Of a stretch of DNA of 64,000 bases, positions 2,615 through 38,653 are shown in pieces. The stretch lies in the IMG/VR virus record IMGVR_UViG_3300046170_000524; one strand, written 5' to 3'. The translations under genes and the position numbers were made by a program. The stretch is from a virus. Within the stretch, counting starts at the first letter, position 1. Each line of letters starts with the position of its first letter. The notes beneath the pieces are model-generated. The model saw only the letters and a program-made list of their open reading frames with translations. It did no database searches and was not told the DNA's origin.

Positions 2615-4973
2615 ATTTAGTTAAAGCTATCTTTTTAACACCTAACTCAGTCACCATATAACAGAAGCTTGACTCAATAATTTTAAATCCCACTTCAGAA
2701 TAAACGGGGGTTAAAGAACTATCAATAAGAGGCACTTTTGCCCATTCAAATTCATCAATGCATATGTATAAAAATTCTCCATTAGTAGATAATTCCTCAG
2801 CAAGAAATTCCCCTGAAACGCTTCGATAAACTATAGAGTATCTAGTTTTGTAATTACCAAAATACAAATAATCATTTTGAAAATATATAAAACCTTCAAC
2901 AGGAACCTCAACTCTTTGCGTTGACGAGCCAATAGTATTAAATACTCTTAAATCGAACTTATAAAGATTTTGAGTAATCTCAATCTCCTCTTTAATTTTA
3001 ATGCCTGTATCCTCGTGAATTAAAAATAGCTCGGCATCATCTAACAAAAACTCATACTCTACGGGGTAATCATAAAATGGATCAGTTAACTCTAGAGATT
3101 GAGCTTCTGATAATTTTGTAATAAAATCTACAGGAATAACCTGCAATTCATTTGCCCATATTGGAGCGGTATCAATAACATTAACAATTTCTATTCTCAG
3201 TCTTTTTTCTGAAACACCAGCTTCGTTAGACGCTAATACAGTTATTTGATAAATATTCTTACTTTCGTAATCTGGTGGAGTTCTAAAATAAAGATTCAGT
3301 CCTTCATTCAAAATAAATTCAAATCTTTGATCTCCCTGTAGAGAATAATAAACTTTACTATCTCCTTCGTCTATATTTTTATCGAACTCTATCTTAGAAG
3401 TGTCGTTTTCTAAATAAAGTATAACCTCAGCAGGTTTTTCCCATGAAGGAGGTATTTCTGGTATAAATCTAGGATAAATTTTAAATCCGTCTCTTTCACT
3501 AATATCGAAAGACATAGAAGAGCTGACCATTACCTCCGACCCTATAGTATGAGTATAAGTTTGAGCCTTTAACTGTACCCTATTAAATTCAAAAGTTATA
3601 TTATTTGCTATTTTAAATAATGCTATATTTGATATATTTTTTTTATCTATAGCTATAAGAGGAAACCTCCTCCAACCAAGAATCGTTTTAATATATACAA
3701 AATGTTTAGTGATTACTTTTTGACCGATATTATAGCCGCTAAAAGAAACGCTTGTTTCAGCTAAAGCTATTTTCCCTTTAGATTCAGAATCTATAGAAAC
3801 ATAATAAAAATCGCAATTTTGACTAATTTTTTCTTGAGGGGCATTAAAAGGGCCTGACCCCTGATAAGGTAAATATCCGCTTTCAACAACTACTTTTTTA
3901 TATCTCCAAATATTACCTCCTATATTTATGTAATAGTTATTTCCATCACAGAAAAAATCTCCAGCATCTCCACGCGTTGACTTAGGTTTAATCGGTTGAT
4001 TTACTATGATTTCATATGTATCACTTTCAGTCAAAAAAGTTTCTGTTGCGTCTTTATTTAGCTCCCTTAGTACCATATCTATAGACATATTTCCAATAAT
4101 TGGAAGCTTAAGTTTTTTATTAAAGGCATAATTGCTTCCCATTCCGTAAATATCTTGTCTAGGAATTGGAATATCTATATCTAGATTTTGAATTGCGGCG
4201 TGCACTGAATCCAATACATTACCACCCCGATCCCCACTTAACTTAATTATTGAAGAAGTTATATCTCCCGCTGCGGTAGCGGAAACTTCCCGAGAAGTAT
4301 GCGGGTCAAACGCAGTGTCGGACTCGTGATAAAAATTATCTATAGCAAAAGAGCTTAAAGATACCTCTTCCTGACTCTTCGAGTTGTCTGGGCCTAACTT
4401 TATTGATGGTAGTTTTGGTTTTGATTCAGTGGAATACAGATCAAAACTCATATTCAATCCGCTATAAGATAATTCCGCAGTGGCAAGTTTACCTACAGAC
4501 AAGTTATACTTATAACTCACTAAAAAAGCATTACCAATCCCTATTACATTAAAATTTTCAAAATCAGCTTCGCTAGGCAAAAGGTTCAAATCCTCATGCT
4601 CATTTTTATTCGAAGTGACAACAATAATATTAATATCGTCGGTATTACTTTTGCTTATAAAATCTTTTAACACGCTATACTCTTGACTTAAGTGAAACCC
4701 AGCAGATTTCTCATTAATAGCTCCTGCAAATAAGTAAGATATCGCGCAATTTACCTCTGGACCTCTAATTACTGGACTTTGATAATTTCTAGTGATAAGC
4801 CTATCGCTACCTATAGCTTTAATATCCGATGAAACATGAGCGAAACTGTAATTCATACCCTGAACACGTATTAAGTTTCTGTAAATAGAACCTTCTTCCT
4901 TAAAACCTGGAGAGTTGGTTAGCAAAATCCCCAACCTCTCATAGGTTAACCTATCAATTACTCCTTGTGCCAT
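2613..4973 (-). CDS. tail-tube paralog with insertion and C-terminal cadherin-like domains
   Basis: N-terminal half aligns by eye with 1288-2562 (RVQGMNYSF; NVIGIGNAFLVSY; IQNLDIDIPIPRQDI); PDYESKNIYQITVLASN...IVNVIDTAP is cadherin-like. Confidence 0.6.
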   Translation of the reverse strand: MAQGVIDRLTYERLGILLTNSPGFKEEGSIYRNLIRVQGMNYSFAHVSSDIKAIGSDRLITRNYQSPVIRGPEVNCAISYLFAGAINEKSAGFHLSQEYSVLKDFISKSNTDDINIIVVTSNKNEHEDLNLLPSEADFENFNVIGIGNAFLVSYKYNLSVGKLATAELSYSGLNMSFDLYSTESKPKLPSIKLGPDNSKSQEEVSLSSFAIDNFYHESDTAFDPHTSREVSATAAGDITSSIIKLSGDRGGNVLDSVHAAIQNLDIDIPIPRQDIYGMGSNYAFNKKLKLPIIGNMSIDMVLRELNKDATETFLTESDTYEIIVNQPIKPKSTRGDAGDFFCDGNNYYINIGGNIWRYKKVVVESGYLPYQGSGPFNAPQEKISQNCDFYYVSIDSESKGKIALAETSVSFSGYNIGQKVITKHFVYIKTILGWRRFPLIAIDKKNISNIALFKIANNITFEFNRVQLKAQTYTHTIGSEVMVSSSMSFDISERDGFKIYPRFIPEIPPSWEKPAEVILYLENDTSKIEFDKNIDEGDSKVYYSLQGDQRFEFILNEGLNLYFRTPPDYESKNIYQITVLASNEAGVSEKRLRIEIVNVIDTAPIWANELQVIPVDFITKLSEAQSLELTDPFYDYPVEYEFLLDDAELFLIHEDTGIKIKEEIEITQNLYKFDLRVFNTIGSSTQRVEVPVEGFIYFQNDYLYFGNYKTRYSIVYRSVSGEFLAEELSTNGEFLYICIDEFEWAKVPLIDSSLTPVYSEVGFKIIESSFCYMVTELGVKKIALTK

Positions 4974-4978
4974 TAAAG

Positions 4979-5012
4979 TTATTACACAATTTCTTCTATT
5001 TTAGTGTAATAA
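4979..5012. promoter_or_regulatory. back-to-back GTGTAATAA motifs (candidate late promoters)
   Basis: TTATTACAC 4979-4987 and GTGTAATAA 5004-5012 form an inverted pair between divergent structural genes. Confidence 0.6.
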
Positions 5013-5024
5013 AGCTTACTTGTT

Positions 5025-6077
5025 ATGCCAAATCAAAGAATATCAGAACTAAATGAAAAACTTAAATTAAATTCTAATTGTTTGGGGTATATAAAGTTCA
5101 GGGATGCTACCGATGCGGTTAGTACTGATAACAATAAATTACTCTTAATAGCTAAAGAGAGAAGTTACAACAAAAAAACTTCTTTTGCTAATCTTAAAAA
5201 ATCTATATTAGATTCATCTTTACAAAATAATTTAGATCAAAATATAAATGGGAAGAAAATATTTGTAAACAAATGTTCTTTTAGAGAGGTTGCAGATAAA
5301 CAAGTTGAAAACTTATACAAAGACAGCTATATAAATCAGTCAAATACAAACAGTGATCCTTATGCTAAATTTCAAGAAAAACAAATACTTCTCTCCGCGA
5401 GCAATAAAGTAAACTTTTCAAAGTCAGTTTCATTTTCTGAAAAAAACGGACTTAGTATAGGAAAATTACAAAACTTAGGGTCATTAAATACATCCGGCAA
5501 AACCTATATACCAAATATATACATAAAAGAAAATGGAGTTTATAAAAAAGTTGAAAACCAAGAAAATCAAGATAATAATATTTATTTTAACCAAAAATTA
5601 CAGGCCGAAAAAAATATACACAAAATATATCTACCAAAAACTTTTAAATATAAACCAGTTATATCTGTAAACTTATTAAACAATAATCAAGAAAATTTCA
5701 TAGCTTATACTATATTTAATGTAACTGAATTAAGTTTTTATATCAAATTCGATCAAGCATTAAATTCAAACAACTACAGCGTAGACATCTCCGCCTTCAG
5801 TCCGTCTACATTAGATAATTCAAACACAAACCCTTTAAATGATTCAAAAAAAATACAAAGATTCCATACATTATTAAATCAAGATAACACAACTCATACA
5901 ATAAACTTTCCATTTAGCTATAATTCTACCCCAGTAATTCATGTTTCAATTGAAAATGAAGAAATTCCGCCTGTTTATTCAGTCAGCAACATAACAAATA
6001 ATTCATTTGAAATAAAATTCCAAAATAGCACGGGAACAGATTTCATAATTCATACTTTATCGCAAGAAATAAATTAA
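5025..6077 (+). CDS. tail fibre-associated protein with tandem H-type-lectin-like C-terminal repeats
   Basis: N-terminal RISEL and DQNINGKKIF motifs typical of fibre proteins; two repeats (IYLPKTFKYKPVISV; INFPFSYNSTPVIHV). Confidence 0.5.
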   Translation: MPNQRISELNEKLKLNSNCLGYIKFRDATDAVSTDNNKLLLIAKERSYNKKTSFANLKKSILDSSLQNNLDQNINGKKIFVNKCSFREVADKQVENLYKDSYINQSNTNSDPYAKFQEKQILLSASNKVNFSKSVSFSEKNGLSIGKLQNLGSLNTSGKTYIPNIYIKENGVYKKVENQENQDNNIYFNQKLQAEKNIHKIYLPKTFKYKPVISVNLLNNNQENFIAYTIFNVTELSFYIKFDQALNSNNYSVDISAFSPSTLDNSNTNPLNDSKKIQRFHTLLNQDNTTHTINFPFSYNSTPVIHVSIENEEIPPVYSVSNITNNSFEIKFQNSTGTDFIIHTLSQEIN

Positions 6078-6079
6078 AA

Positions 6080-7111
6080 ATGGCAACAAATAATAGAATA
6101 TCAAGTTTCGAAGATCAAGAATCGCTTTCATCTTTTGACAATTCTTTCATTCAATCTGACTTCAATTCATCAATAGGTAATGACGACGACGATGTATTAT
6201 TTCTAATAACCACATCTGGAATAGGGAATGAAAAAATTAGTTTTAAAAATTTAAAAAAATCAATACTAGATACATCCGTATTACTAAGTGGAGATCAAAA
6301 TATTAGAGGGCAAAAAACTTTTCTTCAAGAATGCCTATTTATTGGAGGAGTAGATATAGCTTCGCATAGCGTAGAGGATTACATATATCATTCGGGAGAT
6401 CCATCTACCTATATACAATTTGATTCTGGCGAAATAAATCTATCTGCAGCTAATGCTATCACAATAGATAGCAGCGGTAGTTTCATGTCAATAAGCAACT
6501 CAGGTGCGGTTTCTATAAATTCTCATGAAAAATCGGGAGCTTTAAATGTTAGTGGAGACGCCTTTCTAGATGAAGTTTTCATCTTAAATTCAAATGAGCA
6601 ATTTCAAAAATTAACTTCAAGCGTAGAAGATTCTGTTAATTTTACAATAAACTTAAATCAAGGAGATTCTATTCATACCATCGACCTACCTAAAACTTTT
6701 GAAGAGCCCCCATCGATTTTCCTAACCCTAGAAGAAACAGATGTTAATAAGTCAATATCTCAATTTCAATATTCATTAAATAATATTAAAGAATCTAGTT
6801 TCGAAATTTCATTTCTTTCACCGCTGGCCAGCGACTCGATTAACATGCATGTATTAGCTAAACCAAAAGGAGTTTCTTCGAGCCCTCAAACAAAAACTAT
6901 ATCTTTTACAAAAGATTTAAATTCAGGAGAGTCTTCTTTTCAAGTTGACTTTCCTGAGATATTTAACGATAAGCCGATAATATCTACATCTCTAGAAGCT
7001 TCATTTCAGCAATCTTATATACTGCAAAATACAACAATAGGAAACTTTCAGATATTGTTTGAATCTGGATTACAGCAAGACGCAAAGCTACATATTCACG
7101 CAACAAGATAA
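6080..7111 (+). CDS. tail fibre-associated protein, paralog of 5025-6077
   Basis: RISSF and DQNIRGQKTF motifs; repeats IDLPKTFEEPPSIFL and VDFPEIFNDKPIIST. Confidence 0.5.
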   Translation: MATNNRISSFEDQESLSSFDNSFIQSDFNSSIGNDDDDVLFLITTSGIGNEKISFKNLKKSILDTSVLLSGDQNIRGQKTFLQECLFIGGVDIASHSVEDYIYHSGDPSTYIQFDSGEINLSAANAITIDSSGSFMSISNSGAVSINSHEKSGALNVSGDAFLDEVFILNSNEQFQKLTSSVEDSVNFTINLNQGDSIHTIDLPKTFEEPPSIFLTLEETDVNKSISQFQYSLNNIKESSFEISFLSPLASDSINMHVLAKPKGVSSSPQTKTISFTKDLNSGESSFQVDFPEIFNDKPIISTSLEASFQQSYILQNTTIGNFQILFESGLQQDAKLHIHATR

Positions 7112-7114
7112 AGC

Positions 7115-7143
7115 TTGACATTTAATTTCATACCTGCTATAAT
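7115..7143 (+). promoter_or_regulatory. sigma70-type promoter, leaderless
   Basis: TTGACA-17 nt-TATAAT; ATG 6 nt later at 7150. Confidence 0.9.
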
Positions 7144-7149
7144 TCAGGC

Positions 7150-7689
7150 ATGAATAATTTATTGTATAGAACTAAATGTTATTTAGTAGGCCACATGCAA
7201 TACGTTAGTGGCAGAAACTGGAGAGAGCATGTAACAGAAAAGTTAGGCCCACTGGGAATAACTTGCTTTGATCCTTATAAAAAACCATTCATTAAAGACG
7301 TAGAAGAAGATGAAGCCTCTCGCCAAGAAATGGAAACTTGGATGAAGACTAAGCAATACGATAGAGTTACAGATCGAATGAAAACGGTTCGAGCGTATGA
7401 TCTAAATTTAGTTGATCGAAGCGATTTTATAATAGCCCACCTTGTTCCTGAAGTCGCAAGCTGGGGTAGCGCAGAGGAGATCGTAACTGCAGTTAGAGAG
7501 AAAAAACCTGTTTTTGTTAGCATGGAAGGTGGAAAATCAAAAACCCCACTTTGGATGCTTGGAATGTTTCCTCATAAATATATTTATAACACAGTAGATG
7601 AAATAATTGACATGCTATTTGCAATAGATTGCGGCAACAAACCTATAGATTCAGACAGATGGAGATTACTTCAAAAAAAATTTAGATGA
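7150..7689 (+). CDS. nucleoside 2-deoxyribosyltransferase-like / nucleotide hydrolase
   Basis: YLVGHM...WRE...CFDP, DLNLVDRSDFIIA, SWGSAEE motifs of the NDT fold. Confidence 0.75.
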   Translation: MNNLLYRTKCYLVGHMQYVSGRNWREHVTEKLGPLGITCFDPYKKPFIKDVEEDEASRQEMETWMKTKQYDRVTDRMKTVRAYDLNLVDRSDFIIAHLVPEVASWGSAEEIVTAVREKKPVFVSMEGGKSKTPLWMLGMFPHKYIYNTVDEIIDMLFAIDCGNKPIDSDRWRLLQKKFR

Positions 7690-7808
7690 TACACATATTA
7701 GCTACGGCATATTTTGAATTCTTTCCTGGGGACTGGCTTTTTTTTGGAGCCTTAGGCACAGTTATTTGGTTTATAAAATCAAAAAATGATGATAACTTTT
7801 ATGGATAA
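7686..7808 (+). CDS. 40-aa membrane protein (not in ORF track)
   Basis: MIHILATAYFEFFPGDWLFFGALGTVIWFIKSKNDDNFYG; overlaps both neighbours at stop/start junctions. Confidence 0.55.
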   Translation: MIHILATAYFEFFPGDWLFFGALGTVIWFIKSKNDDNFYG

Positions 7809-8775
7809 GCAATATAAATATTCAGACATCGTGCTGACTCCTGAGTATAGTGAATGCACCAGTAGGTCAGAGTGTGACACAAGCGTGAAATTTTGTGGAT
7901 TTAATTTCAAGCTTCCAATTATTCCTGCAAATATGCAATCTGTTATCAACATGAGTCTAGCAAAATGGATGAGTCAAAATGATTATTTTTATATTATGCA
8001 CCGATTTCATAATGATCTCGCAGATAATGTAGCTATTGCAAATGCCGAGAACTGGAAGATAATATCCTTTAGCGTAGGAGTTCAAGACTCAGATCAAGAT
8101 AAAATACATAAAATAAAAAAGCGCGGAAACGTCATTGACTTTCTAACAATAGATATCGCGCACGGTCATTCAAAAAAAATGATTGATATGATTAAATTTA
8201 TCAAAAAAGAGTTGCCGAGCACAAAAATTATAGCGGGTAACGTAGCGACTCGACAAGCTGTGATTGACTTAGCTAATGCAGGAGCAGACGTAGTAAAAGT
8301 TGGAATCGGCCAAGGCTCTCCTTGTACTACAAAAGATAAAACCGGGTTTACACTACCTATGTTTAGTTGTACAAAATCTTGTAGTTCAGTATATATTGGC
8401 GAAGATGAAGATAATTTAAACAAAGTTCCAATTATTGCAGACGGAGGAGTTACATGTAACGGAGATATCACAAAGGCTATTGTTGCTGGCGCGGACATGG
8501 TTATGGCAGGAGGTTTATTTGCGAGCTGCGTGGATAGTCCTGCCACCGTGATAGAAATTAATGGAGAGTTCCACAAAGCTTATTTTGGTTCAGCAAGCTA
8601 TGAAAATAAAAAACATCGCAACCACATCGAAGGCAAACTCAATAAAATAAAAAACAACGGAATGACATATGACCAAAAATTGCAAGAAATAAAACAAGAC
8701 TTACAAAGCTCAATCTCTTATGCAGGTGGTCGAGATGTGAGCGTTTTACAAAAAACTAAATATTTATATCAATAG
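7801..8775 (+). CDS. guaC: GMP reductase
   Basis: IDIAHGHS, KVGIGQGSPCTT, IIADGG, AGADMVMAGGLF, YFGSAS; size fits GuaC, no CBS domains. Start 7801 preferred. Confidence 0.9.
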   Translation: MDKQYKYSDIVLTPEYSECTSRSECDTSVKFCGFNFKLPIIPANMQSVINMSLAKWMSQNDYFYIMHRFHNDLADNVAIANAENWKIISFSVGVQDSDQDKIHKIKKRGNVIDFLTIDIAHGHSKKMIDMIKFIKKELPSTKIIAGNVATRQAVIDLANAGADVVKVGIGQGSPCTTKDKTGFTLPMFSCTKSCSSVYIGEDEDNLNKVPIIADGGVTCNGDITKAIVAGADMVMAGGLFASCVDSPATVIEINGEFHKAYFGSASYENKKHRNHIEGKLNKIKNNGMTYDQKLQEIKQDLQSSISYAGGRDVSVLQKTKYLYQ

Positions 8776-8778
8776 CAC

Positions 8779-8807
8779 TTGACATTTATATTTTTTTATA
8801 CTATAAT
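8779..8807 (+). promoter_or_regulatory. sigma70-type promoter, leaderless
   Basis: TTGACA-17-TATAAT; ATG at 8815. Confidence 0.85.
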
Positions 8808-8814
8808 CAGTACC

Positions 8815-8988
8815 ATGAACAAATCAATAGCAAAAGAAATAAGAAAAATCATTAACCATGATACAAAACTTTCTGACGCAACCCAAAAGCGAGTATATTC
8901 TCGTGCAAAAAAACAATACACAAAACTCAGTAAAGGAGCAAAACCTTTATTTTTAGAAGAACTTAAAAATTTATATAAACAAAATTAA
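8815..8988 (+). CDS. small basic hypothetical protein
   Basis: Start moved to the ATG just after the promoter. Confidence 0.6.
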   Translation: MNKSIAKEIRKIINHDTKLSDATQKRVYSRAKKQYTKLSKGAKPLFLEELKNLYKQN

Positions 8989-8990
8989 TT

Positions 8991-9314
8991 ATGGAAAATC
9001 AAGCACAAGATAAGCAACAATCAGAGTGGCGCAACCGTGAGCTAGGAGCTCTTTGGGTGCGCAGTGGAAAGAATCAAAAATATCTTTCAGGAACAATCAA
9101 TGTCGAAACTATGCCAGGAGTTACAGAGCCTGTAAAAGTAGTTGTATTCACCAATAAAGGTCGAGATAAAAATGAAAGAGCGCCAGATTATGTAATTTAT
9201 AGATCCGAAGAGGCATCTCAAGATAAAACTAATGTCGAGCAAGTCGCAAAGCAAGCGGCGGAAGAAGTAAAGTCGACTCAAAGCAATGAAGATATCCCTG
9301 AAGAATTATTTTAA
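8991..9314 (+). CDS. DUF736-like protein (possible ssDNA-binding)
   Basis: LGALW...KYLSG...VVFTN...APDYVIY pattern with acidic C-tail (EDIPEELF). Confidence 0.5.
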   Translation: MENQAQDKQQSEWRNRELGALWVRSGKNQKYLSGTINVETMPGVTEPVKVVVFTNKGRDKNERAPDYVIYRSEEASQDKTNVEQVAKQAAEEVKSTQSNEDIPEELF

Positions 9315-9316
9315 TT

Positions 9317-9502
9317 ATGGAAAAACAATTTTGGCATAGTAAAAAATTCTGGGCAGCGGTAGTTGCTGCGGGTGTACCTATTGTAAATCATTTCTTTAAT
9401 CTAGGTTTAACGCAAGAAATTGTAATGCAAATCGTAAGTCCGGTCGTAGCATATATCTTAGGTCAAGGTCTTGCAGATTTAGGTAAAAATAAAAACAATT
9501 GA
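9317..9502 (+). CDS. small holin-like membrane protein
   Basis: SKKFWAAVVAA...YILGQGLAD, two hydrophobic helices, basic C-terminus. Confidence 0.5.
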   Translation: MEKQFWHSKKFWAAVVAAGVPIVNHFFNLGLTQEIVMQIVSPVVAYILGQGLADLGKNKNN

Positions 9503-9512
9503 TCTTTGAAAA
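9500..9512 (+). promoter_or_regulatory. boxA-like antitermination element
   Basis: TGATCTTTGAAAA directly upstream of tmRNA; resembles rRNA-leader boxA. Confidence 0.5.
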
Positions 9513-9516
9513 TTAT

Positions 9517-9884
9517 GGGCGTATACTGGATTCGATTTAAATTGAATTTGTATACTGCAAGTAGGAGTGTGTCTGGCTCCTAAATAAGACACAAATCATT
9601 ACATGGCAAAAATCTTAGTCGTGTTGAAAGCTTCGCTCCAAAAAGCGAAGTTTTCGCTTTGGCAGCGTAACACCTGTCACCTCGCAACTTTTGACGCAGA
9701 TAGAAAGATTGCGGGGTCATCAATCTGCAAAAACAGATAAAAGTTTTCTTGTATCACAAACTGAAAATAATTGAAACAAAAAGTTGGATGTTAATATCAT
9801 AACTTTAAAAAAAATTAACTAAACTTGTAGATGTATATCTCTGAAAATTTAAAGACGCGGGTTCAACTCCCGCTACGTCCACCA
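9517..9884 (+). ncRNA. ssrA: tmRNA
   Basis: Acceptor GGGCGTA/TACGTCC with G3:U, discriminator A plus CCA, T-arm GCGGG-TTCAACT-CCCGC; tag ORF 9605-9670 GKNLSRVESFAPKSEVFALAA*. Confidence 0.95.
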
Positions 9885-9914
9885 TTTCCACAAAATCATT
9901 AATCAAAACAAAAC

Positions 9915-10151
9915 ATGAATGACGAAGAAAATGTCAATCAACTTATTTTCAAAAAAATATTAAATAATAAAAATAAACCCGAACACCTTACTGAAAAAGA
10001 GTGGGATGCTATACTTAAAAAAATAGCTCACGCAATCAACAAATCATCAAAAAAAACAAAGCCAGTTTCTTTAGGTAGGAGAAAAGTTCTTGCAAAAGAA
10101 ATTAAAGAAGGCTTTGATCTACTTAGAGTGTACTATAATTACCTAGATTAA
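9915..10151 (+). CDS. hypothetical protein
   Basis: ORF tiles the region. Confidence 0.55.
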   Translation: MNDEENVNQLIFKKILNNKNKPEHLTEKEWDAILKKIAHAINKSSKKTKPVSLGRRKVLAKEIKEGFDLLRVYYNYLD

Positions 10152-10165
10152 TAAAATAAAATTCA

Positions 10166-10336
10166 ATGAACGAAGAAGAAGAAGAAGAAGAGAATGAGAT
10201 TATGTTCGAGCCCGATGACGCGCTTATTTTAGCTTTAAATGAAATTCATGACTTAAAGCAGCTAGTTGAAACGCAAGATTCCGCAATTGAAGAATTAAAG
10301 AGTCAGTTAAGTCTCCTTGCTAAGAAAATTAAGTAA
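10166..10336 (+). CDS. acidic coiled-coil hypothetical protein (not in ORF track)
   Basis: MNEEEEEENEIMFEPDD...LLAKKIK, 56 aa. Confidence 0.55.
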   Translation: MNEEEEEEENEIMFEPDDALILALNEIHDLKQLVETQDSAIEELKSQLSLLAKKIK

Positions 10337-10344
10337 ATTAACGC

Positions 10345-10373
10345 TTGACTTATAGCTACATATATGAGATAAT
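10345..10373 (+). promoter_or_regulatory. sigma70-type promoter (extended -10)
   Basis: TTGACT-17-GATAAT with TG; ATG at 10382. Confidence 0.75.
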
Positions 10374-10381
10374 ACTCGTAT

Positions 10382-10654
10382 ATGAAAAAAATCTCATTAA
10401 ACAAAGATGGTACTCCGCGCAAACGCCGTAACTCAGGCAAAAAAAGCGGTTCAGCTATTGTGTCCTTGTCAGTTAACGAGATCTTAGAGCTCGCATCACA
10501 AGAAGTTTCCTCTATTCCTGTTAGTGAAGATTGGGTTAAAGGTAGGCTTTACGCAAATTATCTTGCAAACAAAAAAGTTTCTAATGATTTCTCAGAACTT
10601 CAGTCAGTGGAAGACAAAATCGAATACGCTATAACATCTTTTGATAATGAATAA
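10382..10654 (+). CDS. hypothetical protein
   Basis: Follows promoter; overlaps ruvB start. Confidence 0.6.
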   Translation: MKKISLNKDGTPRKRRNSGKKSGSAIVSLSVNEILELASQEVSSIPVSEDWVKGRLYANYLANKKVSNDFSELQSVEDKIEYAITSFDNE

Positions 10655-11573
10655 TTATTTTTCACACTTAATCGGTCAAGAAAACGTTAAGAAAAAACTT
10701 AACTTTTACTTAAAAGCTTATCATGCCACCAGCGTATGCCCTTTCCTAAATTTAGTTGGAGCAAAAGGATTAGGTAAAACTCTTTTCGCAAAAGAATTCG
10801 CTAAAAACTTGAACAATAAAGATGGAGGTAAGAGACCTTTTTTAGAGTTAAATTGTTCAACAATTAAAAGCAATACTCAATTTTTCGAACAAATCTTTAT
10901 TCCAATCATCATGAATAATGAGATCACTATTTTATTTGATGAAGCGCATGCGTTACCTAAAGACTTGACAATGGCTTTCTTGACTATCTTTAACACAGAA
11001 AAGACAAACAAAAAAGAATTTACTTTTGAAGATCAGACTTTTGAATTTGATTTCACAAAGCAAACATTTATTTTTGCAACAACCGAAAGCGATAAATTAT
11101 TTCCGCCCTTAAAAGACAGGTTAACAACAGTTGACTTTGAAGCCTATAATGCTAATGACTTAGGAGAAATTATTAAATTAAATTGCGATGGAATTAATTT
11201 CTCTGAAGAAGCGATGGATAAGCTTTCATTAACTGTCAGAGGAAACGCTCGCAATGCAGTTATGCGCTCAAAAGAAATTGTGCTCTACTGTGAGAGCGAA
11301 AATCAAAACACTTTTGAATCAAAAGATTATGAAGCCCTTACAGATTTACTTGGCATACTCCCTCATGGAATTACTTGTACAGAAAAACAAATTCTACAAA
11401 TTCTTGAAGAAAGAGGTAGTTGCAAGTTGCAAACCTTATCCGCAATTACGGGCTTAAGCCCAACATCTCTAAGAAGAGACCATGAAATATATCTTCTGCG
11501 CAAAAACTTTATGCAAATTGATGGAGAAAGAAAGATAACTAATTCAGGCAAAAATTTAATTAAATCAATATAA
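10647..11573 (+). CDS. ruvB: RuvB-like Holliday junction branch-migration ATPase
   Basis: GQENVKKKL, Walker A GAKGLGKT, Walker B LFDEAH, ATTE, PLKDR, RGNAR, C-terminal winged helix (E.YLLR..F..I.GERKIT..G). Confidence 0.85.
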   Translation: MNNYFSHLIGQENVKKKLNFYLKAYHATSVCPFLNLVGAKGLGKTLFAKEFAKNLNNKDGGKRPFLELNCSTIKSNTQFFEQIFIPIIMNNEITILFDEAHALPKDLTMAFLTIFNTEKTNKKEFTFEDQTFEFDFTKQTFIFATTESDKLFPPLKDRLTTVDFEAYNANDLGEIIKLNCDGINFSEEAMDKLSLTVRGNARNAVMRSKEIVLYCESENQNTFESKDYEALTDLLGILPHGITCTEKQILQILEERGSCKLQTLSAITGLSPTSLRRDHEIYLLRKNFMQIDGERKITNSGKNLIKSI

Positions 11574-11576
11574 TAT

Positions 11577-11771
11577 ATGACAACAGAAACAAAAAGTAAA
11601 GTATATGTAGTAACTAGAAATTCAAGAAGAATTGAAGAAAGAAATTACTCTTCAAAAGAAGATGCGGAGGCTAGAGCTCAAAAATTAGTTAATGTGTTAA
11701 AAACATGGAGAGACCCCGATCTAAAAAAAGTCAAAGTGGTGCATACAGATAAACCTCAAAAAATCAGATAG
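11577..11771 (+). CDS. hypothetical protein
   Basis: ORF in operon. Confidence 0.55.
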   Translation: MTTETKSKVYVVTRNSRRIEERNYSSKEDAEARAQKLVNVLKTWRDPDLKKVKVVHTDKPQKIR

Positions 11772-12277
11772 TGCTAGAAGATAAGCCAAAGTTTAAAAAT
11801 TTATTTGAAGAACTAGCTTTCAATCGGGGTTATACCCCTAGAAAAAGAAATAGTTCTGACAAAAACTGCAAAAATGTATCTCACATCTTGACAGGAAAAG
11901 GGTCAGAAGGAAAACCCATCAAAATTAAAGTTGATGTCAAAAAAATTAAAAATAAAAAACAAGACCAAAATTGGCTTTGGATTGAATTCAAAAATGCTAG
12001 TGGTAGGAACGGATGGATTCATGGAGATGCACACTTTATCGTTTTTGAGCGCAAAGAAGATTTTATTTTTGTTAACCGCAAAGAACTCTCGTCTTGGATA
12101 AGCTCTTCTAATAAAATTAGATACGATTTGCCATTTGTAACATTAGCGAAAAAAGCAAAGTACAGAATATACAAAAGAGCTGGAGAAAAAGACGAGATAA
12201 CTCAGATTAAAGTTGATGACATAAAAGATTTAAAGTCATTCCAGATATGGAAAAAGCCCGATGGCAAATCAACCTGA
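11771..12277 (+). CDS. conserved phage protein, possible PD-(D/E)XK nuclease
   Basis: KVDVKKIK...WLWIEFKN...GWIHG pattern. Confidence 0.45.
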   Translation: MLEDKPKFKNLFEELAFNRGYTPRKRNSSDKNCKNVSHILTGKGSEGKPIKIKVDVKKIKNKKQDQNWLWIEFKNASGRNGWIHGDAHFIVFERKEDFIFVNRKELSSWISSSNKIRYDLPFVTLAKKAKYRIYKRAGEKDEITQIKVDDIKDLKSFQIWKKPDGKST

Positions 12278-12689
12278 ACTAGATAAAACTTATATAAAAA
12301 TGGCGAGACAGTGGAGCTCTTTATCTAAAGCTAAGAGGCTCCAAGTTGGATGTTTAATTGTTAAAGACGGATCAATTATATCCGATGGATATAATGGCAC
12401 ACCAAAAGGTTTCAATAACCAATGTGAAGATATAGACTATTTTAATCAACTTGTAACTCGCAAGGAAGTTTTGCATGCAGAAAGTAATGCAATTACCAAA
12501 TTAGCAAAGTCTACACAATCTAGTTCTGGAGCAACAATGTATGTCACAACCTCACCTTGCATTGAATGCGCCAAGCTTATTATTCAATCAGACATCATTA
12601 GAGTTGTATATTCAGATTTTTATCGCAGTAATGCAGGTATAAATCTTCTAAAAAAAGCGGGAATAAAAGTAGAACAGCTACAAATTTAA
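12261..12689 (+). CDS. dCMP deaminase
   Basis: GYNGTPKG, HAESNAI, SPCIECAK zinc-binding motifs. Confidence 0.92.
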   Translation: MANQPELDKTYIKMARQWSSLSKAKRLQVGCLIVKDGSIISDGYNGTPKGFNNQCEDIDYFNQLVTRKEVLHAESNAITKLAKSTQSSSGATMYVTTSPCIECAKLIIQSDIIRVVYSDFYRSNAGINLLKKAGIKVEQLQI

Positions 12690-12702
12690 ATTATCATCTT
12701 AA

Positions 12703-13266
12703 ATGATAGAAGGTATCTCAATTATAATAATTTTGTTTTTGTGTTATTTTGTATATAAATACAAACCGCAAGACGACTCCGAACTAGATGATCTAAGAAA
12801 TGAAAATGAATTTTTAAAATTAAAATTAAATGAATTCAACACAGAATCAAAAGGCAGAGAAGATAGTTTAACAAAAATTATTAATGAATTACAGTCATCT
12901 ATTCCAAAAGATAGAGAGGATTTTGAGAAGAGGAACAACATTCAGTCGCAGCAGATAAAAGAACTTCAGGAGAAGCTCGATAGCGAGACTGAGGCTCGTA
13001 AGAAAGTTCTTTCGCAGAAGAAGAGTGGGGAGGTCAGGCTTGGGCATATAGCGGAGACCCTAGCTCCCTTCTTGGATCAATTTGAATTTGATCCAGAGAG
13101 ATGTTCTTTTATGGGTAAACCGATTGACTATATATCATTCGGAGATGATGAGATAACTTTTATAGAAGTAAAAAGCGGTAACGCACAATTAAATCAAAGA
13201 CAAAGACAAATTAAACAATTAGTAAAACAAAAAGCAATATCATGGAAAGAAGTAAGGATAAAATGA
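12703..13266 (+). CDS. endonuclease related to archaeal Holliday junction resolvase, with N-terminal TM helix and coiled coil
   Basis: GHIAETLAPF...FMGKPIDYISF...FIEVKSG..QL...Q.QIK. Confidence 0.75.
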   Translation: MIEGISIIIILFLCYFVYKYKPQDDSELDDLRNENEFLKLKLNEFNTESKGREDSLTKIINELQSSIPKDREDFEKRNNIQSQQIKELQEKLDSETEARKKVLSQKKSGEVRLGHIAETLAPFLDQFEFDPERCSFMGKPIDYISFGDDEITFIEVKSGNAQLNQRQRQIKQLVKQKAISWKEVRIK

Positions 13267-14039
13267 GTTTTAATTTATTAAGATTTCTCAAAGAACTTAA
13301 GGGTAAAAAAATTATCTACACGCCAAATCCAGGGAATGCGGGAGATAGCTTAATTGCTTCGAGCACTTTAGATATATTCAAAAAGATTAATTTAGACTTC
13401 GAAATCCAAAACCCTAAAAACAAATTTAACAAAAAAACAATTATCTATGGAGGAGGAGGGAATCTAATAGATAAATATGATAATTTAAGAAATTTTTTAT
13501 GGAAAAATCTTAAAGATAATCGAATAATTGTTTTGCCCCACACATTTAGTCACTGCGACAAATTATTAAATCGCATAGGTAGTAATGTAACATTAATCGC
13601 AAGAGAAAGAGTTTCATTCGATTACATCAAAACGCATATGCTATACCCCGAGAACGCTTTACTTTCAGATGACATGGCATTCCACCTTGATAATTTAGAC
13701 TTCTACATAAATGAACCTAATGCAGGCATATGCAATGCCTTTAGGCTAGATAAGGAAAAGACAAGTGTTGATATACCTGACAACAATAAGGATGTATCAG
13801 CGGATTTTATTTTTAAACAGAATACTTTAAATGAAAGTCATATAAAAATTTCTGCAGATAATTTACTTCGCTATCTATCTAAATTCGAGGAGATTAATAC
13901 AAATCGACTACATGTAGGTATAGCTGGCTCACTTCTAGGAAGAAAAGTTAATCTCTTCCCTAATTCATATTATAAAAACGAAGCGGTCTTCTCTTTCTCA
14001 ATTAAAAATAAGTATAAAAATACATCATTTATGAATTAA
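13263..14039 (+). CDS. polysaccharide pyruvyl transferase family protein
   Basis: NPGNAGDSLI, YGGGGNL, LPHT, ARERVSF, DDMAF, TNRLHVGIAGSLLG. Confidence 0.8.
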   Translation: MSFNLLRFLKELKGKKIIYTPNPGNAGDSLIASSTLDIFKKINLDFEIQNPKNKFNKKTIIYGGGGNLIDKYDNLRNFLWKNLKDNRIIVLPHTFSHCDKLLNRIGSNVTLIARERVSFDYIKTHMLYPENALLSDDMAFHLDNLDFYINEPNAGICNAFRLDKEKTSVDIPDNNKDVSADFIFKQNTLNESHIKISADNLLRYLSKFEEINTNRLHVGIAGSLLGRKVNLFPNSYYKNEAVFSFSIKNKYKNTSFMN

Positions 14040-14043
14040 TGCA

Positions 14044-27243: not shown

Positions 27244-27244
27244 A

Positions 27245-27871: not shown

Positions 27872-27873
27872 TA

Positions 27874-28722
27874 ATGCACATTATATTAGGCAAAAACGGA
27901 TACATAGCAGAAGCCATCATAAAAGAATTAAAATCACGCGATTTACCTCATGTCGCTTGGAGTAGAAGTGATGTTGATTATACAAATCTTGCAGAACTCA
28001 AATATAATCTTTATATTTTAGGAGACGATTTACATATAATTAATTGCGCAGGATATATTGGCAAACCAAATGTTGATGCTTGTGAATTAGCAAAAGCTGA
28101 TTGCATAGAAGGTAATGTTTTGCTTCCTGCGATGTTGGCTCAATTGTGTCACGAAAGCAAATATAATTTTACGCAAATATCTTCGGGCTGCATCTATGGT
28201 GGATATGAAAAAGATTTCACCGAACAAGATGCTCCTAATTTTGATTTCCAAAATGGTAGTTTTTATAGCGGAACTAAAGCTCTTGCAGAGAAAGTTGTAT
28301 TGCAAAATAATGCAAATAGCTATATCTTTAGATTGCGTATTCCATTTGATGAATATGCATCTCCAAGAAACTACTTGACTAAATTACTATCTTACGATAC
28401 TTTATTAGATGCGAAAAATTCTCTATCTCATAGAGCTGATTTTGCCAAATATACAATGGATTTAATACAGCAAAAAGTACCACATGGAATTTATAATATC
28501 ACAAATAAAGGTAGCGTTACCACAAAAGATGTGGTTGAACTAATTAAAAAATATAATTTATCAGATAAAGATTTTAAATTTTTTGATAATTTAGAATCTT
28601 TCAGCAAAGAGACTATTGCCCCAAGATCAAACTGCGTCCTTGACACAACTAAAATCGAACAATATATTAAAATAAGAACGGCAACAGAAGCATTAGAAGA
28701 AGCAATTCAAAAATACACTTGA
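27874..28722 (+). CDS. RmlD-like NAD(P)-dependent nucleotide-sugar reductase
   Basis: ILGKNGYIA, INCAGYIGKPNVDACE, ISSGCIY, YSGTKA (YxxxK), FRLRIPF. Confidence 0.8.
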   Translation: MHIILGKNGYIAEAIIKELKSRDLPHVAWSRSDVDYTNLAELKYNLYILGDDLHIINCAGYIGKPNVDACELAKADCIEGNVLLPAMLAQLCHESKYNFTQISSGCIYGGYEKDFTEQDAPNFDFQNGSFYSGTKALAEKVVLQNNANSYIFRLRIPFDEYASPRNYLTKLLSYDTLLDAKNSLSHRADFAKYTMDLIQQKVPHGIYNITNKGSVTTKDVVELIKKYNLSDKDFKFFDNLESFSKETIAPRSNCVLDTTKIEQYIKIRTATEALEEAIQKYT

Positions 28723-29294: not shown

Positions 29295-29355
29295 ATTTAT
29301 ATATACACCCAAAAACACCTTGACATTCAGTGTCTAAACTGATATACTATTCAAT

Positions 29356-30405
29356 ATGACAACAATACTAGGACTTACTTGTATAAGCGAAGAGCTAAAA
29401 GATAAAGACAAAAAGAAATATTCATTTCGCACAATGACCCGCAAGCGTTTCAATGATTTGTGTACCTCAGAAGGTAGAGATGAAGCTATTTTTCAATTAT
29501 CTGAGAGAATTTTGCACAATGTTAGTGTTACTCAATATATTATCAATCATTGTCATTCCTCAAATATTAGGCATTATCGTCTTAGCAGTAATTTATGTCC
29601 CTTGGTTACTGATGAAACATTGGAAATTGATTTCGAAACGCTTCCCGACATCAAAGCAATCAAGCAAGAATTTCGACATATAGGTATTCTCGCAAAAACA
29701 TTGGGTATCAGCATGGGTTCGCACCCCGATCAATTTTGCGTATTAGCTTCACTCAATCAAGATGCAGTTCGCAGAACAATAATCGAACTAAATTTTCAAG
29801 CGAAAATCTTTGACATGATTGGATTACCGCGAGATCATACTGCTCCCATGAATATTCATGTGAATGCAAGCCCAACACCTATTGTAGGAGTTGAGATGAT
29901 GATCGCATCCGAGCAGATACATAAACTTAAAATCAAACAGCTCGCAGAACGCTTCTACGAGAATTTGCAAAAATGCGATGAAGGGGTACGAAATCGTCTT
30001 ACTATCGAGAACGAGGACAAAGGATTTTTTAATGTAGATACTTGTTTGCAGTTCAGCGAATATTTACTTGAGAAATATCAATACAATTTGCCTGTAGTTC
30101 ACGACAATCTTCACGATAATTGCAATCCGTCAGAGGAGAAAAATATTACCAGAAATGCGGAGCGATGTGCTTACACATGGGTAAACCAAGGAGAAGGAGA
30201 TAACAATTTTATTTCACCTGTATTTCATTGGTCTTTCGGTAAACCCGAAAAACCAAGGGCTCATGCAGATTATGCACCGCCACATAATTCTTATCCGCCT
30301 GTAGTAGCTATCGATCCAAACTATCCCGCAAAGTTTGAAATCGAGCTAAAATTGAAAGATAAAGCAATTCGTTTGCTTAAACAACAAGTCGAAGTATCTA
30401 TTTAA
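29356..30405 (+). CDS. uvsE: UV damage endonuclease (UvdE/UvsE)
   Basis: LGLTCIS, YRLSSNL.P, SHPDQF..LAS, MNIH, RLTIENED, D.LHD, HWS, HADY, EIELKLKDKAI. Confidence 0.9.
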   Translation: MTTILGLTCISEELKDKDKKKYSFRTMTRKRFNDLCTSEGRDEAIFQLSERILHNVSVTQYIINHCHSSNIRHYRLSSNLCPLVTDETLEIDFETLPDIKAIKQEFRHIGILAKTLGISMGSHPDQFCVLASLNQDAVRRTIIELNFQAKIFDMIGLPRDHTAPMNIHVNASPTPIVGVEMMIASEQIHKLKIKQLAERFYENLQKCDEGVRNRLTIENEDKGFFNVDTCLQFSEYLLEKYQYNLPVVHDNLHDNCNPSEEKNITRNAERCAYTWVNQGEGDNNFISPVFHWSFGKPEKPRAHADYAPPHNSYPPVVAIDPNYPAKFEIELKLKDKAIRLLKQQVEVSI

Positions 30406-31003
30406 TTTTATTGCTTTTCAACAAGTTTTCCTTTGCCCAGAGAGGCTGCAAATTTGTGTAGTGATTGGCTTGCCAAGGATCATCAGAATTATTAATATAC
30501 CAATCAAGAGGCGTGATGTGATCGATATGCCATCCATCAAAACCATGATTATCCCAAGTCATACCTTCTTGCCATTGCGATTCTATATGTTCTTTAAATT
30601 GCTCAAGAGAGCAACCAAGGAAATCTAATGATTTGATATTTTTTTCTTGCTTCGTTGCGTCAGCCACTCTTAAGGTATATCTTCTAATGATGCATTTTAA
30701 TTTATACAAATGATTATTTTTATAATTTTGCTTATGCCAAGAATTTACTCTTTTAATTATCTTATCTTTATTTTTTAAATAATGCCTTTTTTTGTTTTCT
30801 TGTAATGCTTGCTGATTTTTCTTAGCGTATTCTTTTTGATATTCAGCAATTTTAACTTTATTTTTTTGTGCGTATCGTTTTTGTTGCTTGCCAGTGCAAG
30901 ATTTGCAAATAGGTCTTAATCTATCTTTTTTTGTTCGATCTTTATTGAAATCGATCAAAGATTTTTCTTCTTGACATTTCGTGCATTTTTTGATATTATC
31001 CAC
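30398..31003 (-). CDS. free-standing HNH / endonuclease VII-like homing endonuclease
   Basis: CTKC...CKSC zinc motif; WHIDHITPL...NHYTNLQPLWAKENLLKSNK. Confidence 0.8.
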   Translation of the reverse strand: MDNIKKCTKCQEEKSLIDFNKDRTKKDRLRPICKSCTGKQQKRYAQKNKVKIAEYQKEYAKKNQQALQENKKRHYLKNKDKIIKRVNSWHKQNYKNNHLYKLKCIIRRYTLRVADATKQEKNIKSLDFLGCSLEQFKEHIESQWQEGMTWDNHGFDGWHIDHITPLDWYINNSDDPWQANHYTNLQPLWAKENLLKSNKIK

Positions 31004-31023
31004 TGTAATATATTACACTTTTT

Positions 31024-31635
31024 ATGGCTATTTGTTATTTAATTAAGCAACTTAATTCAAGAAAAAAAACTTATTATAAAATAGGAGTATCGAGCAGTAA
31101 AAATCAAACAGAAAGATTGAGGCATTTACAAACAGGAAATCCGCATAAATTAGTTATAATTAAGACCCACAAATTACAAACCAAACATCTTGCGGAAAAA
31201 CTAGAGCAATATATTTTGAGAGGATTGGACTCCTCAAATATAAAACGCTGTCAAGGAGAATGGGTTTTTGGGGATTCAAAAAAAATAGAATTAACTTTTA
31301 ATAATTGTTTTAAAAAATTCTCCCTCTTAAAAGAAGAAGATATTAAAAACACGAAAAGATGGAGTTTTGGAAGGGGAGGATTAAACCCCTCTATTGCTGC
31401 ACAAAAATCCATAAAAGTAAGACAAAGCAAGGCAAAATCTTGGCGAAAAGATATTAACCTTATGGAGAATATCAAAATAGCCATACAACAACTGAAAAAA
31501 CCTACGCTCCGAAAAATTGCTGAAATTTTAAATAATAAAGGTCTTGTGACGATCCGAGGCAAGCAATGGAACAAAGCTCAACTTTCAGTTCAATTGAAAG
31601 TAATGGGATTTCAGAAGTGGCAAGATTTAGTCTAA
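31024..31635 (+). CDS. GIY-YIG (T5orf172-like) nuclease with C-terminal HTH
   Basis: CYLIK...YKIGVS...ERLRHLQTGNP...E...GEW; TLRKIAEILNNKGL.T.RGKQW. Confidence 0.75.
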   Translation: MAICYLIKQLNSRKKTYYKIGVSSSKNQTERLRHLQTGNPHKLVIIKTHKLQTKHLAEKLEQYILRGLDSSNIKRCQGEWVFGDSKKIELTFNNCFKKFSLLKEEDIKNTKRWSFGRGGLNPSIAAQKSIKVRQSKAKSWRKDINLMENIKIAIQQLKKPTLRKIAEILNNKGLVTIRGKQWNKAQLSVQLKVMGFQKWQDLV

Positions 31636-32462
31636 CTCAAATCATGCAATGCAATATCAAAATCAGCATTAACTGCACCATTGTTTCCGTCTGAATCTAC
31701 AATATTAAATATTATATCTGTTTTTGGTTGTAGCTTAGTTGGAAAGTCAAGGCTTCTTTGCGTATCGTGATCTGTTCCAAAAGATACAATTTCGCGTACT
31801 CGAAACACTTTACCAAATTCGCGTGTCCTTATTTGAGCAGTAAAATTTATACTACTTGAACTTGGTTTTTGAGCGGATAAACTATATTTGGTTAAATAAC
31901 CAATTTTATCAGCAGGAATTGTATATACGCACATGAGCGTTTGATTATTGCCATCAAGAATTTTAACATAATCAATTGAACCCCCAACTTCATTGATTGT
32001 TATGTTTCCCGCGAAATCGACATTTCCATCGTTATACGCTCGAAATATGCGTGTCCAAGTCCCTATATTAACAGGAGTTGAACCTGTGAGTGTGCTCGTC
32101 CAAGTTTTTTCTAAGAAATTTTCATCTAAACCTTGAATAACCACATCTTGAGTATCTGACCCATCGGATGACACAATTTCCATAATCTCTCCACTATCAC
32201 TTGGAAAAATATATTCATTTGATCCATCCCAAATTGTTTCGGGGCTACTGACTGATAACCCACTATTTTTGATACTTGGATTGCTACCAAATTTATGAAC
32301 AAAATCGCTTGCTTGAGCAGTTATTCCTCCCGCATAGGAACCGCCACTTGTCATTGGAACCCATCTTGATATAGTTTGATCCCAAACATAATTAAATGGT
32401 ATAGTAAAATTCCTGTGAGGGACTACATCCCCTAAGTCATCAAATTTTGGTTGGTCTACCAT
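31632..32462 (-). CDS. putative virion structural protein
   Basis: S/T/G-rich beta-type protein; GTGTAAATA 14 nt upstream supports start 32462. Confidence 0.5.
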   Translation of the reverse strand: MVDQPKFDDLGDVVPHRNFTIPFNYVWDQTISRWVPMTSGGSYAGGITAQASDFVHKFGSNPSIKNSGLSVSSPETIWDGSNEYIFPSDSGEIMEIVSSDGSDTQDVVIQGLDENFLEKTWTSTLTGSTPVNIGTWTRIFRAYNDGNVDFAGNITINEVGGSIDYVKILDGNNQTLMCVYTIPADKIGYLTKYSLSAQKPSSSSINFTAQIRTREFGKVFRVREIVSFGTDHDTQRSLDFPTKLQPKTDIIFNIVDSDGNNGAVNADFDIALHDLS

Positions 32463-32592
32463 AAACATATTTACACTTAATTATTGACAGAGCTATTTTT
32501 ATTTGCTATACTATATCAATGATTAATTATATAATAAATTTTTTAATAATATTAGCTATAATAGCATTTAGTTGTTTATTAATGATAGAATT

Positions 32593-37803: not shown

Positions 37804-38066
37804 TGAATAAATATAATGTCAATGATAAAATCAGTGTGACGATGCAAGCAATTAATTTAATTTACTCTCAAATAGAAAAATTAGACCCTTCCATCGAACA
37901 ATTAGACGAAATAAATAAACGACATGAATTATTAATTGACCAAGAATTATTTTGGAGCAAACAAGATAATCCGAAAAGATTTTTATATGACTTACAAGAA
38001 TTCGGTCATTGGTTATATGAATATTTAGACCTTAAAAAATACGAAAACCTAGATATAGATTTATGA
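37803..38066 (+). CDS. hypothetical protein
   Basis: TAATG coupling. Confidence 0.55.
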   Translation: MNKYNVNDKISVTMQAINLIYSQIEKLDPSIEQLDEINKRHELLIDQELFWSKQDNPKRFLYDLQEFGHWLYEYLDLKKYENLDIDL

Positions 38067-38248
38067 ATATGAAAGATACAAATAATTGGCAAATAGTTTC
38101 CGCAAGCGAAGTAGAAGAATTTTTTTACCAAGATACGGACGAAGTAGTAAATGAAGGAGATGCGGTTGGAATCGAAATAGACAACGGAGATTCAGTAGAT
38201 TTAGTTTTATTTGGGAATCTTTATTGGAGCGATCAGAATTTATACTAA
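38063..38248 (+). CDS. acidic hypothetical protein
   Basis: ATGA overlap. Confidence 0.5.
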   Translation: MNMKDTNNWQIVSASEVEEFFYQDTDEVVNEGDAVGIEIDNGDSVDLVLFGNLYWSDQNLY

Positions 38249-38266
38249 TTATGTGTAAATATTTAT

Positions 38267-38653
38267 ATGGTTATACCTACATTCAGAGATTTATTAAAAG
38301 GAAAATCATATAAAACTATCTTTAATCAGATATATAAAACTTATCTTAAAAAAGAAAAAGATCACAAGGTAATAGAACTTTCCCTTGATATACATAATTT
38401 AATAAAAAAAATAAGACAATCTCAAGAAAAAAATAGTATAACTAAATCATTCATCCTTACTGAACTAGAAGATGGCGAATATGATGCAAATTTTATTGAA
38501 GAAAAAAGCGATGAGATATTGCCATTAGAAAATCTAAAAGTGGAAGATATAATAAATTTAGAAGTATTAGCTCCACCAAAGTTAAATGAAATAGAAATAC
38601 TAGGGCATATTATTTGGCATTATTATGGCAGAACAAAAGGAAAGATTATATGA
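38267..38653 (+). CDS. hypothetical protein
   Basis: GTGTAAATA 14 nt upstream (38253). Confidence 0.55.
   Translation: MVIPTFRDLLKGKSYKTIFNQIYKTYLKKEKDHKVIELSLDIHNLIKKIRQSQEKNSITKSFILTELEDGEYDANFIEEKSDEILPLENLKVEDIINLEVLAPPKLNEIEILGHIIWHYYGRTKGKII

Follow-up and report, generated by a model that had tools for sequence, protein, structure and literature searches.

What does the pentamer GTGTA do at a fixed, short distance before start codons in the DNA analysed here, a 64,000-nt stretch of the virus record IMGVR_UViG_3300046170_000524 (hereafter the window) that is part of a large, low-GC (~32%), uncultured marine phage? Eleven such sites had been listed from the letters of the window (the original prediction) as candidate late promoters, consisting of a single element without a −35 box, giving near-leaderless mRNAs, and analogous to those of phage T4. 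We find that the motif pattern is real and highly non-random, and that GTGTA together with the approximately nine G-poor, A/T-rich bases behind it is probably a one-piece promoter without a −35 element, serving the non-early (middle and late) gene class and read by a phage sigma factor.

The window holds 39 copies of GTGTA compared with 64 ± 8 expected from shuffled sequences, an under-representation (observed/expected 0.61–0.67, ranking at about 85 among the 1024 pentamers) that amounts to modest avoidance and is not used as an argument here. Measured from the first G of GTGTA to the first base of the start codon, as are all GTGTA spacings below, nine of the 39 copies precede ATG-led open reading frames (ORFs) of at least 60 amino acids (aa), seven of them at 14 nt and two at 15 nt, and every other offset from −30 to +59 holds either no copy or one. 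No other pentamer in the window comes near 9/39. Besides these nine there is a tenth site 15 nt from a GTG start codon, and two further starts have the word at 16 and 21 nt. When the window is pooled with G006, a relative of 125.7 kb that is 93% complete, 24 of the 148 copies are at 14–15 nt against a baseline of 0.58% for all pentamers, a 28-fold excess (binomial P=3e-27), and all 15 one-mismatch variants tabulated in these two sequences (15/15) are at background. An alignment of 42 sites has GTGTA invariant in all five bases, followed by about nine A/T-rich bases almost free of G, and nothing outside the word is conserved from −40 to −1, neither a −35 nor any other upstream consensus. The earlier observation that the sites lack a TTGACA −35 box is borne out, with none present at −35 distance from any of them.

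All eleven sites listed originally are correct in coordinate and spacing when the sequence is re-read, and both of the divergent pairs among them are real. In the first pair, a minus-strand site at 4983–4987 (GTGTAATAA; 14 nt to ATG 4973) heads gene 2613–4973, and the plus-strand site back to back with it at 5004–5008 (GTGTAATAA) lies 21 nt from ATG 5025, representing a longer-leader class; the unit that it heads comprises 5025–6077, encoding an H-type lectin domain, and 6080–7111. In the second, a minus-strand site at 16912–16916 (GTGTAACAA; 14 nt to ATG 16902) heads a papain-family peptidase gene (15994–16902) and is back to back with a plus-strand site at 16924–16928 (GTGTATATA; 15 nt to ATG 16939), whose unit begins with a 76-aa ORF (16939–17169) and continues into a plus-strand gene run (17166–22754). 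One site had been missed, a plus-strand copy at 17150–17154 (GTGTAAGTC) that is 16 nt from ATG 17166, the start of a 519-aa protein; it is a weaker candidate because it is located within the preceding small ORF.

The five other minus-strand sites are at 23578–23582 (GTGTACTAA; 15 nt to ATG 23567), heading an APS-kinase/cytidylyltransferase-like fusion gene (22764–23567); at 23960–23964 (GTGTATATA; 14 nt to ATG 23950), heading 23591–23950 (119 aa); at 29304–29308 (GTGTATATA; 14 nt to ATG 29294; 77 aa); at 31014–31018 (GTGTAATAT; 15 nt to GTG 31003), heading 30398–31003, a gene of uncertain start codon whose 201-aa product is HNH-like by eye and has no Pfam match; and at 32472–32476 (GTGTAAATA; 14 nt to ATG 32462), heading 31632–32462 (phrog_8198). 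On the plus strand, the site at 26400–26404 (GTGTATTTT; 14 nt to ATG 26414) starts two bases past the stop codon of the upstream gene and heads a four-gene unit (26414–28722), and that at 38253–38257 (GTGTAAATA; 14 nt to ATG 38267; 128 aa) sits within a plus-strand block that is otherwise driven by sigma70-type promoters. GTGTA had been said to head almost every isolated antisense gene before 33 kb, and all seven minus-strand genes in 1–33 kb are so headed.

PHROGs and Pfam gave no match for most of the structural-looking proteins headed by GTGTA, and the late or structural label therefore draws on weak leads: phrog_290 at 24 bits, tube-like Atlas clusters, and paralogy. The 424-aa protein encoded by 1288–2562 (+) resembles phage tail-tube clusters (Atlas scores 0.94–0.97, a lead only) and is paralogous to the N-terminal 320 aa of the divergent 786-aa protein encoded by 2613–4973 (26% identity, E=2e-17). 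A search for relatives with the 786-aa protein found none.

The word is restricted to the heads of transcription units, and genes internal to GTGTA-headed operons (those at 6080, 18726, 19718, 26713, 27245, and 27874) do not have it. A natural experiment is offered by one orthologous 144-aa gene that lies near the sigma factor gene of the relatives (see below) and for which 62 distinct upstream contexts are available. In 47 of these the gene has no same-strand ORF abutting it, and 46 of the 47 carry GTGTA at 14–16 nt; in the other 15 the gene comes directly after another ORF, and a single one of them has the word. GTGTA therefore tracks the first position in a unit, and not the gene or its start codon. 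This decides most of the question of whether the word is a promoter or a translation signal. An RNA-level role in a short 5′ leader, with GTGTA recruiting ribosomes or stabilising the mRNA, had been the fallback of the original prediction and would agree with the fixed spacing to the start codon and with the absence of Shine-Dalgarno sequences, but operon-internal genes are translated without the word, the same orthologous gene loses it once it becomes operon-internal, the isolated antisense genes have no alternative candidate promoter, and some sites are at 20–21 nt. Nor would GTGTA be expected to pair with the CCUCC anti-Shine-Dalgarno sequence, and altogether we regard a signal acting in RNA as highly improbable.

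The promoter reading gains further from conservation. The closest relative, L001, is part of a 184-kb IMG/VR contig that is syntenic with 21–42.7 kb of the window at ~65–89% nucleotide identity per segment (mostly 70–77%), and it retains GTGTA-N9-ATG at the orthologs of the genes starting at 23950 (L001 18209), 32462 (L001 9990, 14 nt), and 38267 (L001 4016, minus strand). A second relative, L002, has the counterpart of the 29308 site at 1336 with equal spacing and that of the 32476 site at 3559 with a spacing of 21 nt. The 4987/5004 pair is kept in L003 and L004, where the spacing of the 4987 site is unchanged and the 5004 counterpart is at 20 nt, and both of these have an additional GTGTA site ~2 kb upstream of the tube-like gene. 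In L005–L007 the tube-like protein has only 32% aa identity, yet GTGTAATAATAAACATG and GTGTAATAATATCTATG precede the neighbouring genes.

In G006, 20 of the 109 GTGTA copies are 14–17 nt before ATG-led ORFs, and these include counterparts of the window's 29308 site (107030, same spacing) and 32476 site (117589, 15 nt). The word heads a portal-sized gene directly after that for the large terminase subunit and several genes for unannotatable proteins, and also a ClpC-like ATPase gene adjoining the DNA polymerase gene and a unit running into a DnaB-like helicase gene. Because of these last two, the original designation of the sites as late is too narrow, and non-early, comprising middle and late, fits better. 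Across 80 loci that carry the sigma gene (1.25 Mb in all), 324 of 868 GTGTA copies stand 14–17 nt before an ATG-led ORF compared with 2 of 868 in a reverse-complement control. The portal-like gene keeps GTGTA just past the terminase stop codon in 46 of 48 distinct upstream contexts while the next 10–12 bases vary.

The two back-to-back pairs invite another explanation, in which GTGTA is not recognised by polymerase but is a half-site for a DNA-binding regulator, either a repressor or an activator, acting over the promoters of these units. The inverted arrangements TTACAC...GTGTAA at 4983–5008 and 16912–16928 do resemble a dimer operator. Most sites, however, are single and specific to one strand, as the reverse-complement counts make plain, and there is no second conserved element within 40 nt upstream that could be the true promoter; we judge a regulator half-site to be very unlikely.

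A candidate reader of GTGTA is an extracytoplasmic function (ECF)-like sigma factor encoded in the relatives. The protein is 231 aa long and has two domains, sigma2 and sigma4, with four invariant cysteines between them; it matches Pfam Sigma70_r2 (PF04542) at 25–27 bits, above the cut-off. Its AlphaFold model has a pLDDT of 91.6, and among the Foldseek matches listed almost all are sigma factors (ECF sigmaH, sigmaE, and sigmaL, then sigma28, sigmaA, and sigmaS), in alignments spanning 206–269 columns except for one nuclear magnetic resonance entry that covers region 2 only. The Foldseek E-values are weak (4e-3 and above) and the TM-scores are ~0.3, owing to the arrangement of two mobile domains. 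As modelled, a content of sigma2 and sigma4 only, within ~200–250 aa, would place the protein with the ECF sigmas. A 60-row alignment of the family is too diverse for a pattern scan.

The sigma gene is always preceded in the relatives by an overlapping gene for a CxxC...CxxC zinc-ribbon protein, a possible sigma co-factor or anti-sigma, and the two form an operon (e.g. L076 9625–10723; G006 60642–61749, minus strand; L008 1039–2066, minus strand). The family comprises 347 clusters at 50% identity and occurs in at least 463 metagenome stretches, and the gene is present in the relatives G005, G006, G007, and G009. The locus L076, which is on the same 184-kb contig as L001, is colinear with window positions 62115–63999 and has the sigma operon ~6.6–7.7 kb further on, and five metagenome loci with like synteny have the sigma 6–10 kb from the homolog of window 63572–63880. 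Two relative contigs without a sigma match end before the syntenic position, and every contig reaching that position has the gene. A metagenome scan with the sigma returned syntenic relatives and not the window's own contig, and a tblastn search of the sigma against cultured phages gave no match. The operon is itself behind a host-type promoter, TTGATA-N17-TATAAT 8 nt before the ATG in L076 and TTGATA-N16-TATAAT 11 nt before it in G006, which fits a cascade running from host-type promoters through the phage sigma to GTGTA. Sigmas as little as 36% identical accompany the same GTGTA word; the link between the two is circumstantial.

Host-type promoters form a second class in the window itself. 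There are roughly 27 matches to TTGAC-N16-18-TAnnnT between 7115 and 63368 (e.g. those beginning at 7115, 14473, 24003, 29320, 42105, 49710, 57717, and 58458), and their −10 hexamers end 6–8 nt, mostly 6 nt, before an ATG, the starts never being GTG or TTG. No Shine-Dalgarno sequence was seen upstream of any listed start. From established promoter geometry, a −10 box 6–8 nt from the ATG would put the transcription start on the A of the ATG, and these are therefore predicted to be leaderless early units. Relative to the ATG, GTGTA and these −10 boxes are in the same position, and gene by gene in the window the two kinds of promoter are mutually exclusive. Sigma70-type matches scoring 11 or 12 of 12 in the region 14–34 kb are all on the plus strand. 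A second promoter often lies back to back with a GTGTA site: it is another GTGTA in two pairs, and three sites (23964, 29308, and 32476) diverge from a sigma70-type promoter, which for 29308 is the plus-strand promoter at 29320. At 30971–31024 a plus-strand sigma70-type promoter (−10 end at 30999, ATG at 31024) overlaps the minus-strand GTGTA at 31018–31014, and the two units could be mutually exclusive. A scan of 14–34 kb for intrinsic terminators gave 10 sites against 9.4 expected, and thus no signal.

The shared position raises the question of whether the host's primary sigma might read GTGTA too, as a −35-independent promoter of the extended −10 type, with a small phage protein disabling −35 recognition in the manner of gp39 of P23-45 or AsiA of T4 and the phage sigma serving some other purpose. 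The word combines a TG with an adjacent TA, has A/T-rich bases beside it, and is placed at −10; TGn precedes the −10 box in many sigma70-type promoters of the phage; and the late promoter of P23-45 is of the extended −10 class, used once gp39 blocks −10/−35 promoters (PMC4124052). In GTGTA, however, the TG abuts the TA without a spacer, so that TG and hexamer cannot both be in register with TGnTATAAT, and only 13 of the 42 sites have a T at the T-7 position, a background level. In contrast to the degenerate boxes of sigma70, the word has a first G that never varies and shows no enrichment of its one-mismatch variants, and a dedicated sigma gene is found wherever a relative contig extends far enough along the syntenic map. 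We therefore consider recognition by the host sigma unlikely. The sigma70 extended −10 box as such (TG, one spacer base, TAnnnT, and conserved A-11 and T-7) was not found in the 42 sites.

The scheme that we favour, with a phage sigma as the reader of GTGTA, would begin with host RNA polymerase and its primary sigma transcribing from phage TTGACA-N17-TATAAT promoters, one of which would drive the two-gene operon encoding the zinc-ribbon protein and the 231-aa ECF-like sigma with its four-cysteine insert. The phage sigma would then redirect the core enzyme to GTGTA, which has the position expected of a −10 box when transcription starts at the ATG. From this placement, transcription is predicted to start 0–2 nt before the start codon, or ~7 nt before it in the 20–21-nt class, such that the mRNAs would have little or no leader and would be translated without a Shine-Dalgarno sequence; the leaderless nature of the GTGTA-headed messages is read from this geometry only. 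The single-element, −35-less, near-leaderless promoter proposed originally is now well supported by the fixed position of the word, its confinement to the first genes of units, its retention in relatives, and the natural experiment, while promoter function, reading by this sigma, and the locations of the starts are inferred rather than proven.

Several points weigh against this scheme. The 80 sigma-bearing loci are orthologous, and their counts measure retention and not independent origins. Metatranscriptome and metagenome contigs of the phage (runs X18–X20) are only 150–640 nt long (150–500 nt in the metatranscriptome), of low depth, and unstranded, and carry no end information; one metatranscriptome contig crosses the 23582 site. 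The promoter reading is thus supported but not proven. At the 31018 site the start codon is GTG, which suits a leaderless mRNA poorly. The sigma gene is outside the window, and its presence in the window's own genome is predicted from synteny in the relatives. Finally, the sigma model has a sigma4-like domain and yet the 42 aligned GTGTA sites show no −35 consensus.

Genes for an rIIB-like protein, for an ATP-dependent DNA ligase, for a clamp-loader-like ATPase, and for a tRNA-Ser are present in the window. Megablast of window positions 1–20000 against the phage collection gave no match among cultured phages, and the terminase is no more than 27% identical to that of any cultured phage. For widespread marine phages of this kind, without a cultured member and with most proteins, structural ones included, escaping profile annotation, the GTGTA rule can be read from sequence alone. 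It marks the heads of transcription units, separates early from non-early genes, points to a testable sigma–promoter pair, and fixes true start codons, such as that of the peptidase gene at 16902 and not 16983. A broader proposition, to which we give even chances, is that a large and abundant clade of wholly uncultured marine phages runs its whole expression programme on leaderless messages, with both promoter classes at a fixed distance from the start codon (early genes having TTGACA-N17-TATAAT-N6-ATG and all others GTGTA-N9-ATG) and the switch made by a new zinc-insert branch of sigma factors with a zinc-ribbon partner. If this is true, finding GTGTA would be enough to assign temporal regulons and true start codons directly in hundreds of uncultured phage genomes. 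The GTGTA rule also offers a further probable example of promoters whose placement is under selection with respect to the start codon, with a bearing on leaderless translation in phages and on the translation apparatus of the host.

Several other features of the window were noted. A full-length transfer-messenger RNA gene is present at 9517–9884 (+; Rfam RF00023, 121.8 bits, model positions 1–374), for which ARAGORN made no call, and a manA RNA motif is present at 53176–53385 (+; RF01745, 86 bits) with its own TTGACA-N17-TATAAT promoter at 53077. A gene similar to MvaI/BcnI-family restriction endonucleases (57751–58461; Pfam, 146 bits) adjoins a GP88-family gene (58492–59232), and the two have similar promoters and an identical start tag (...CATAATgaaaccATGatt). 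Pentamers containing ACGT are strongly avoided in the window and in G006 (observed/expected 0.08–0.30), as are GGACC/GGTCC in the window (0.19), which looks like avoidance of restriction sites. A contig from an RNA library (run X18) joins 24785 to 25395 through 27 other letters, skipping a 165-aa ORF at 24867–25364 that is HNH-like by eye; some strains appear to be without this gene, which may be a mobile insertion.

Among known systems, the closest described promoter, by analogy, is that of phiEco32 and not that read by gp55 of T4. The middle and late promoters of phiEco32 share an AATGTA element centred at −11.5, which the phage sigma gp36 recognises with the aid of gp79 (PMC12276001); the consensus is also given as tAATGTAtA, and that of the related Salmonella phage 7-11 is TGATGT(TATA) (PMC4331800). 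As with GTGTA, the element is single and short, has TGTA at its core, and lies in the −10 region; it lacks a −35 consensus and drives non-early genes, and its reader is a sigma-family protein made from host-type promoters, the role that we propose for the ECF-like sigma here. With the TGTA at −12 to −9 as in phiEco32, GTGTA-N9-ATG would start transcription one base before the ATG, so the analogy is close in both sequence and position. The differences are that the present word, GTGTA, begins with a G that does not vary, that the candidate sigma has a four-cysteine insert and a zinc-ribbon partner gene, and that the element is locked 14–15 nt from the start codon, which would imply leaderless mRNAs. 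A counterpart of gp79 has not been identified, no search with gp79 having been made, and the zinc-ribbon protein is no more than a candidate for a partner of the sigma. An hhalign comparison of the sigma family profile A1 with gp36 gave a probability of 1% (E=0.05), and thus no detectable homology, a further point to set on the negative side of the scale; the precedent is therefore an analogy only, with membership failing on the defining protein.

The likeness to T4 drawn in the original prediction remains good insofar as T4 late promoters (TATAAATA, used by gp55 with gp33 and the sliding clamp) are one-piece elements without a −35 box, located at −10 and used late, at which a phage sigma replaces that of the host. 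It is not the closest one available, given that the protein proposed as reader has the two domains of an ECF-like sigma and the AATGTA of phiEco32 is nearer. The T4 consensus is unrelated, as the 42 sites have GTGTA and A/T-rich bases with no fixed sequence after the word, TATAAATA not being found in them; gp55 is a truncated sigma, whereas the candidate here has sigma2-like and sigma4-like domains; and GTGTA also heads non-structural genes. With the bacterial ECF (group 4) sigmas the candidate shares a two-domain architecture of ~230 aa, and its best sequence and fold matches are sigmaH, sigmaE, sigmaW, and CnrH. ECF −10 boxes often have a GT(A/C) core, e.g. the CGTATA box of B. subtilis sigmaW, but ECF promoters are bipartite with a strong −35 element, of which there is none at the GTGTA sites, and ECF sigmas do not ordinarily have a cysteine-rich insert separating sigma2 from sigma4.

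The extended −10 late promoter of Thermus phage P23-45, which depends on host sigmaA plus gp39/gp76 (PMC4124052), is likewise −35-independent and used late in infection, but differs in its TGnTATAAT register and conserved T-7 and in that the relatives described here have a sigma gene; P23-45 with its gp39 and T4 with its gp55 are both more distant analogues than phiEco32. Literature searches returned no matching description of the GTGTA word or of a leaderless promoter class read by a phage sigma. We see the GTGTA system as a known phage strategy in a new form, used by an abundant and uncultured clade.

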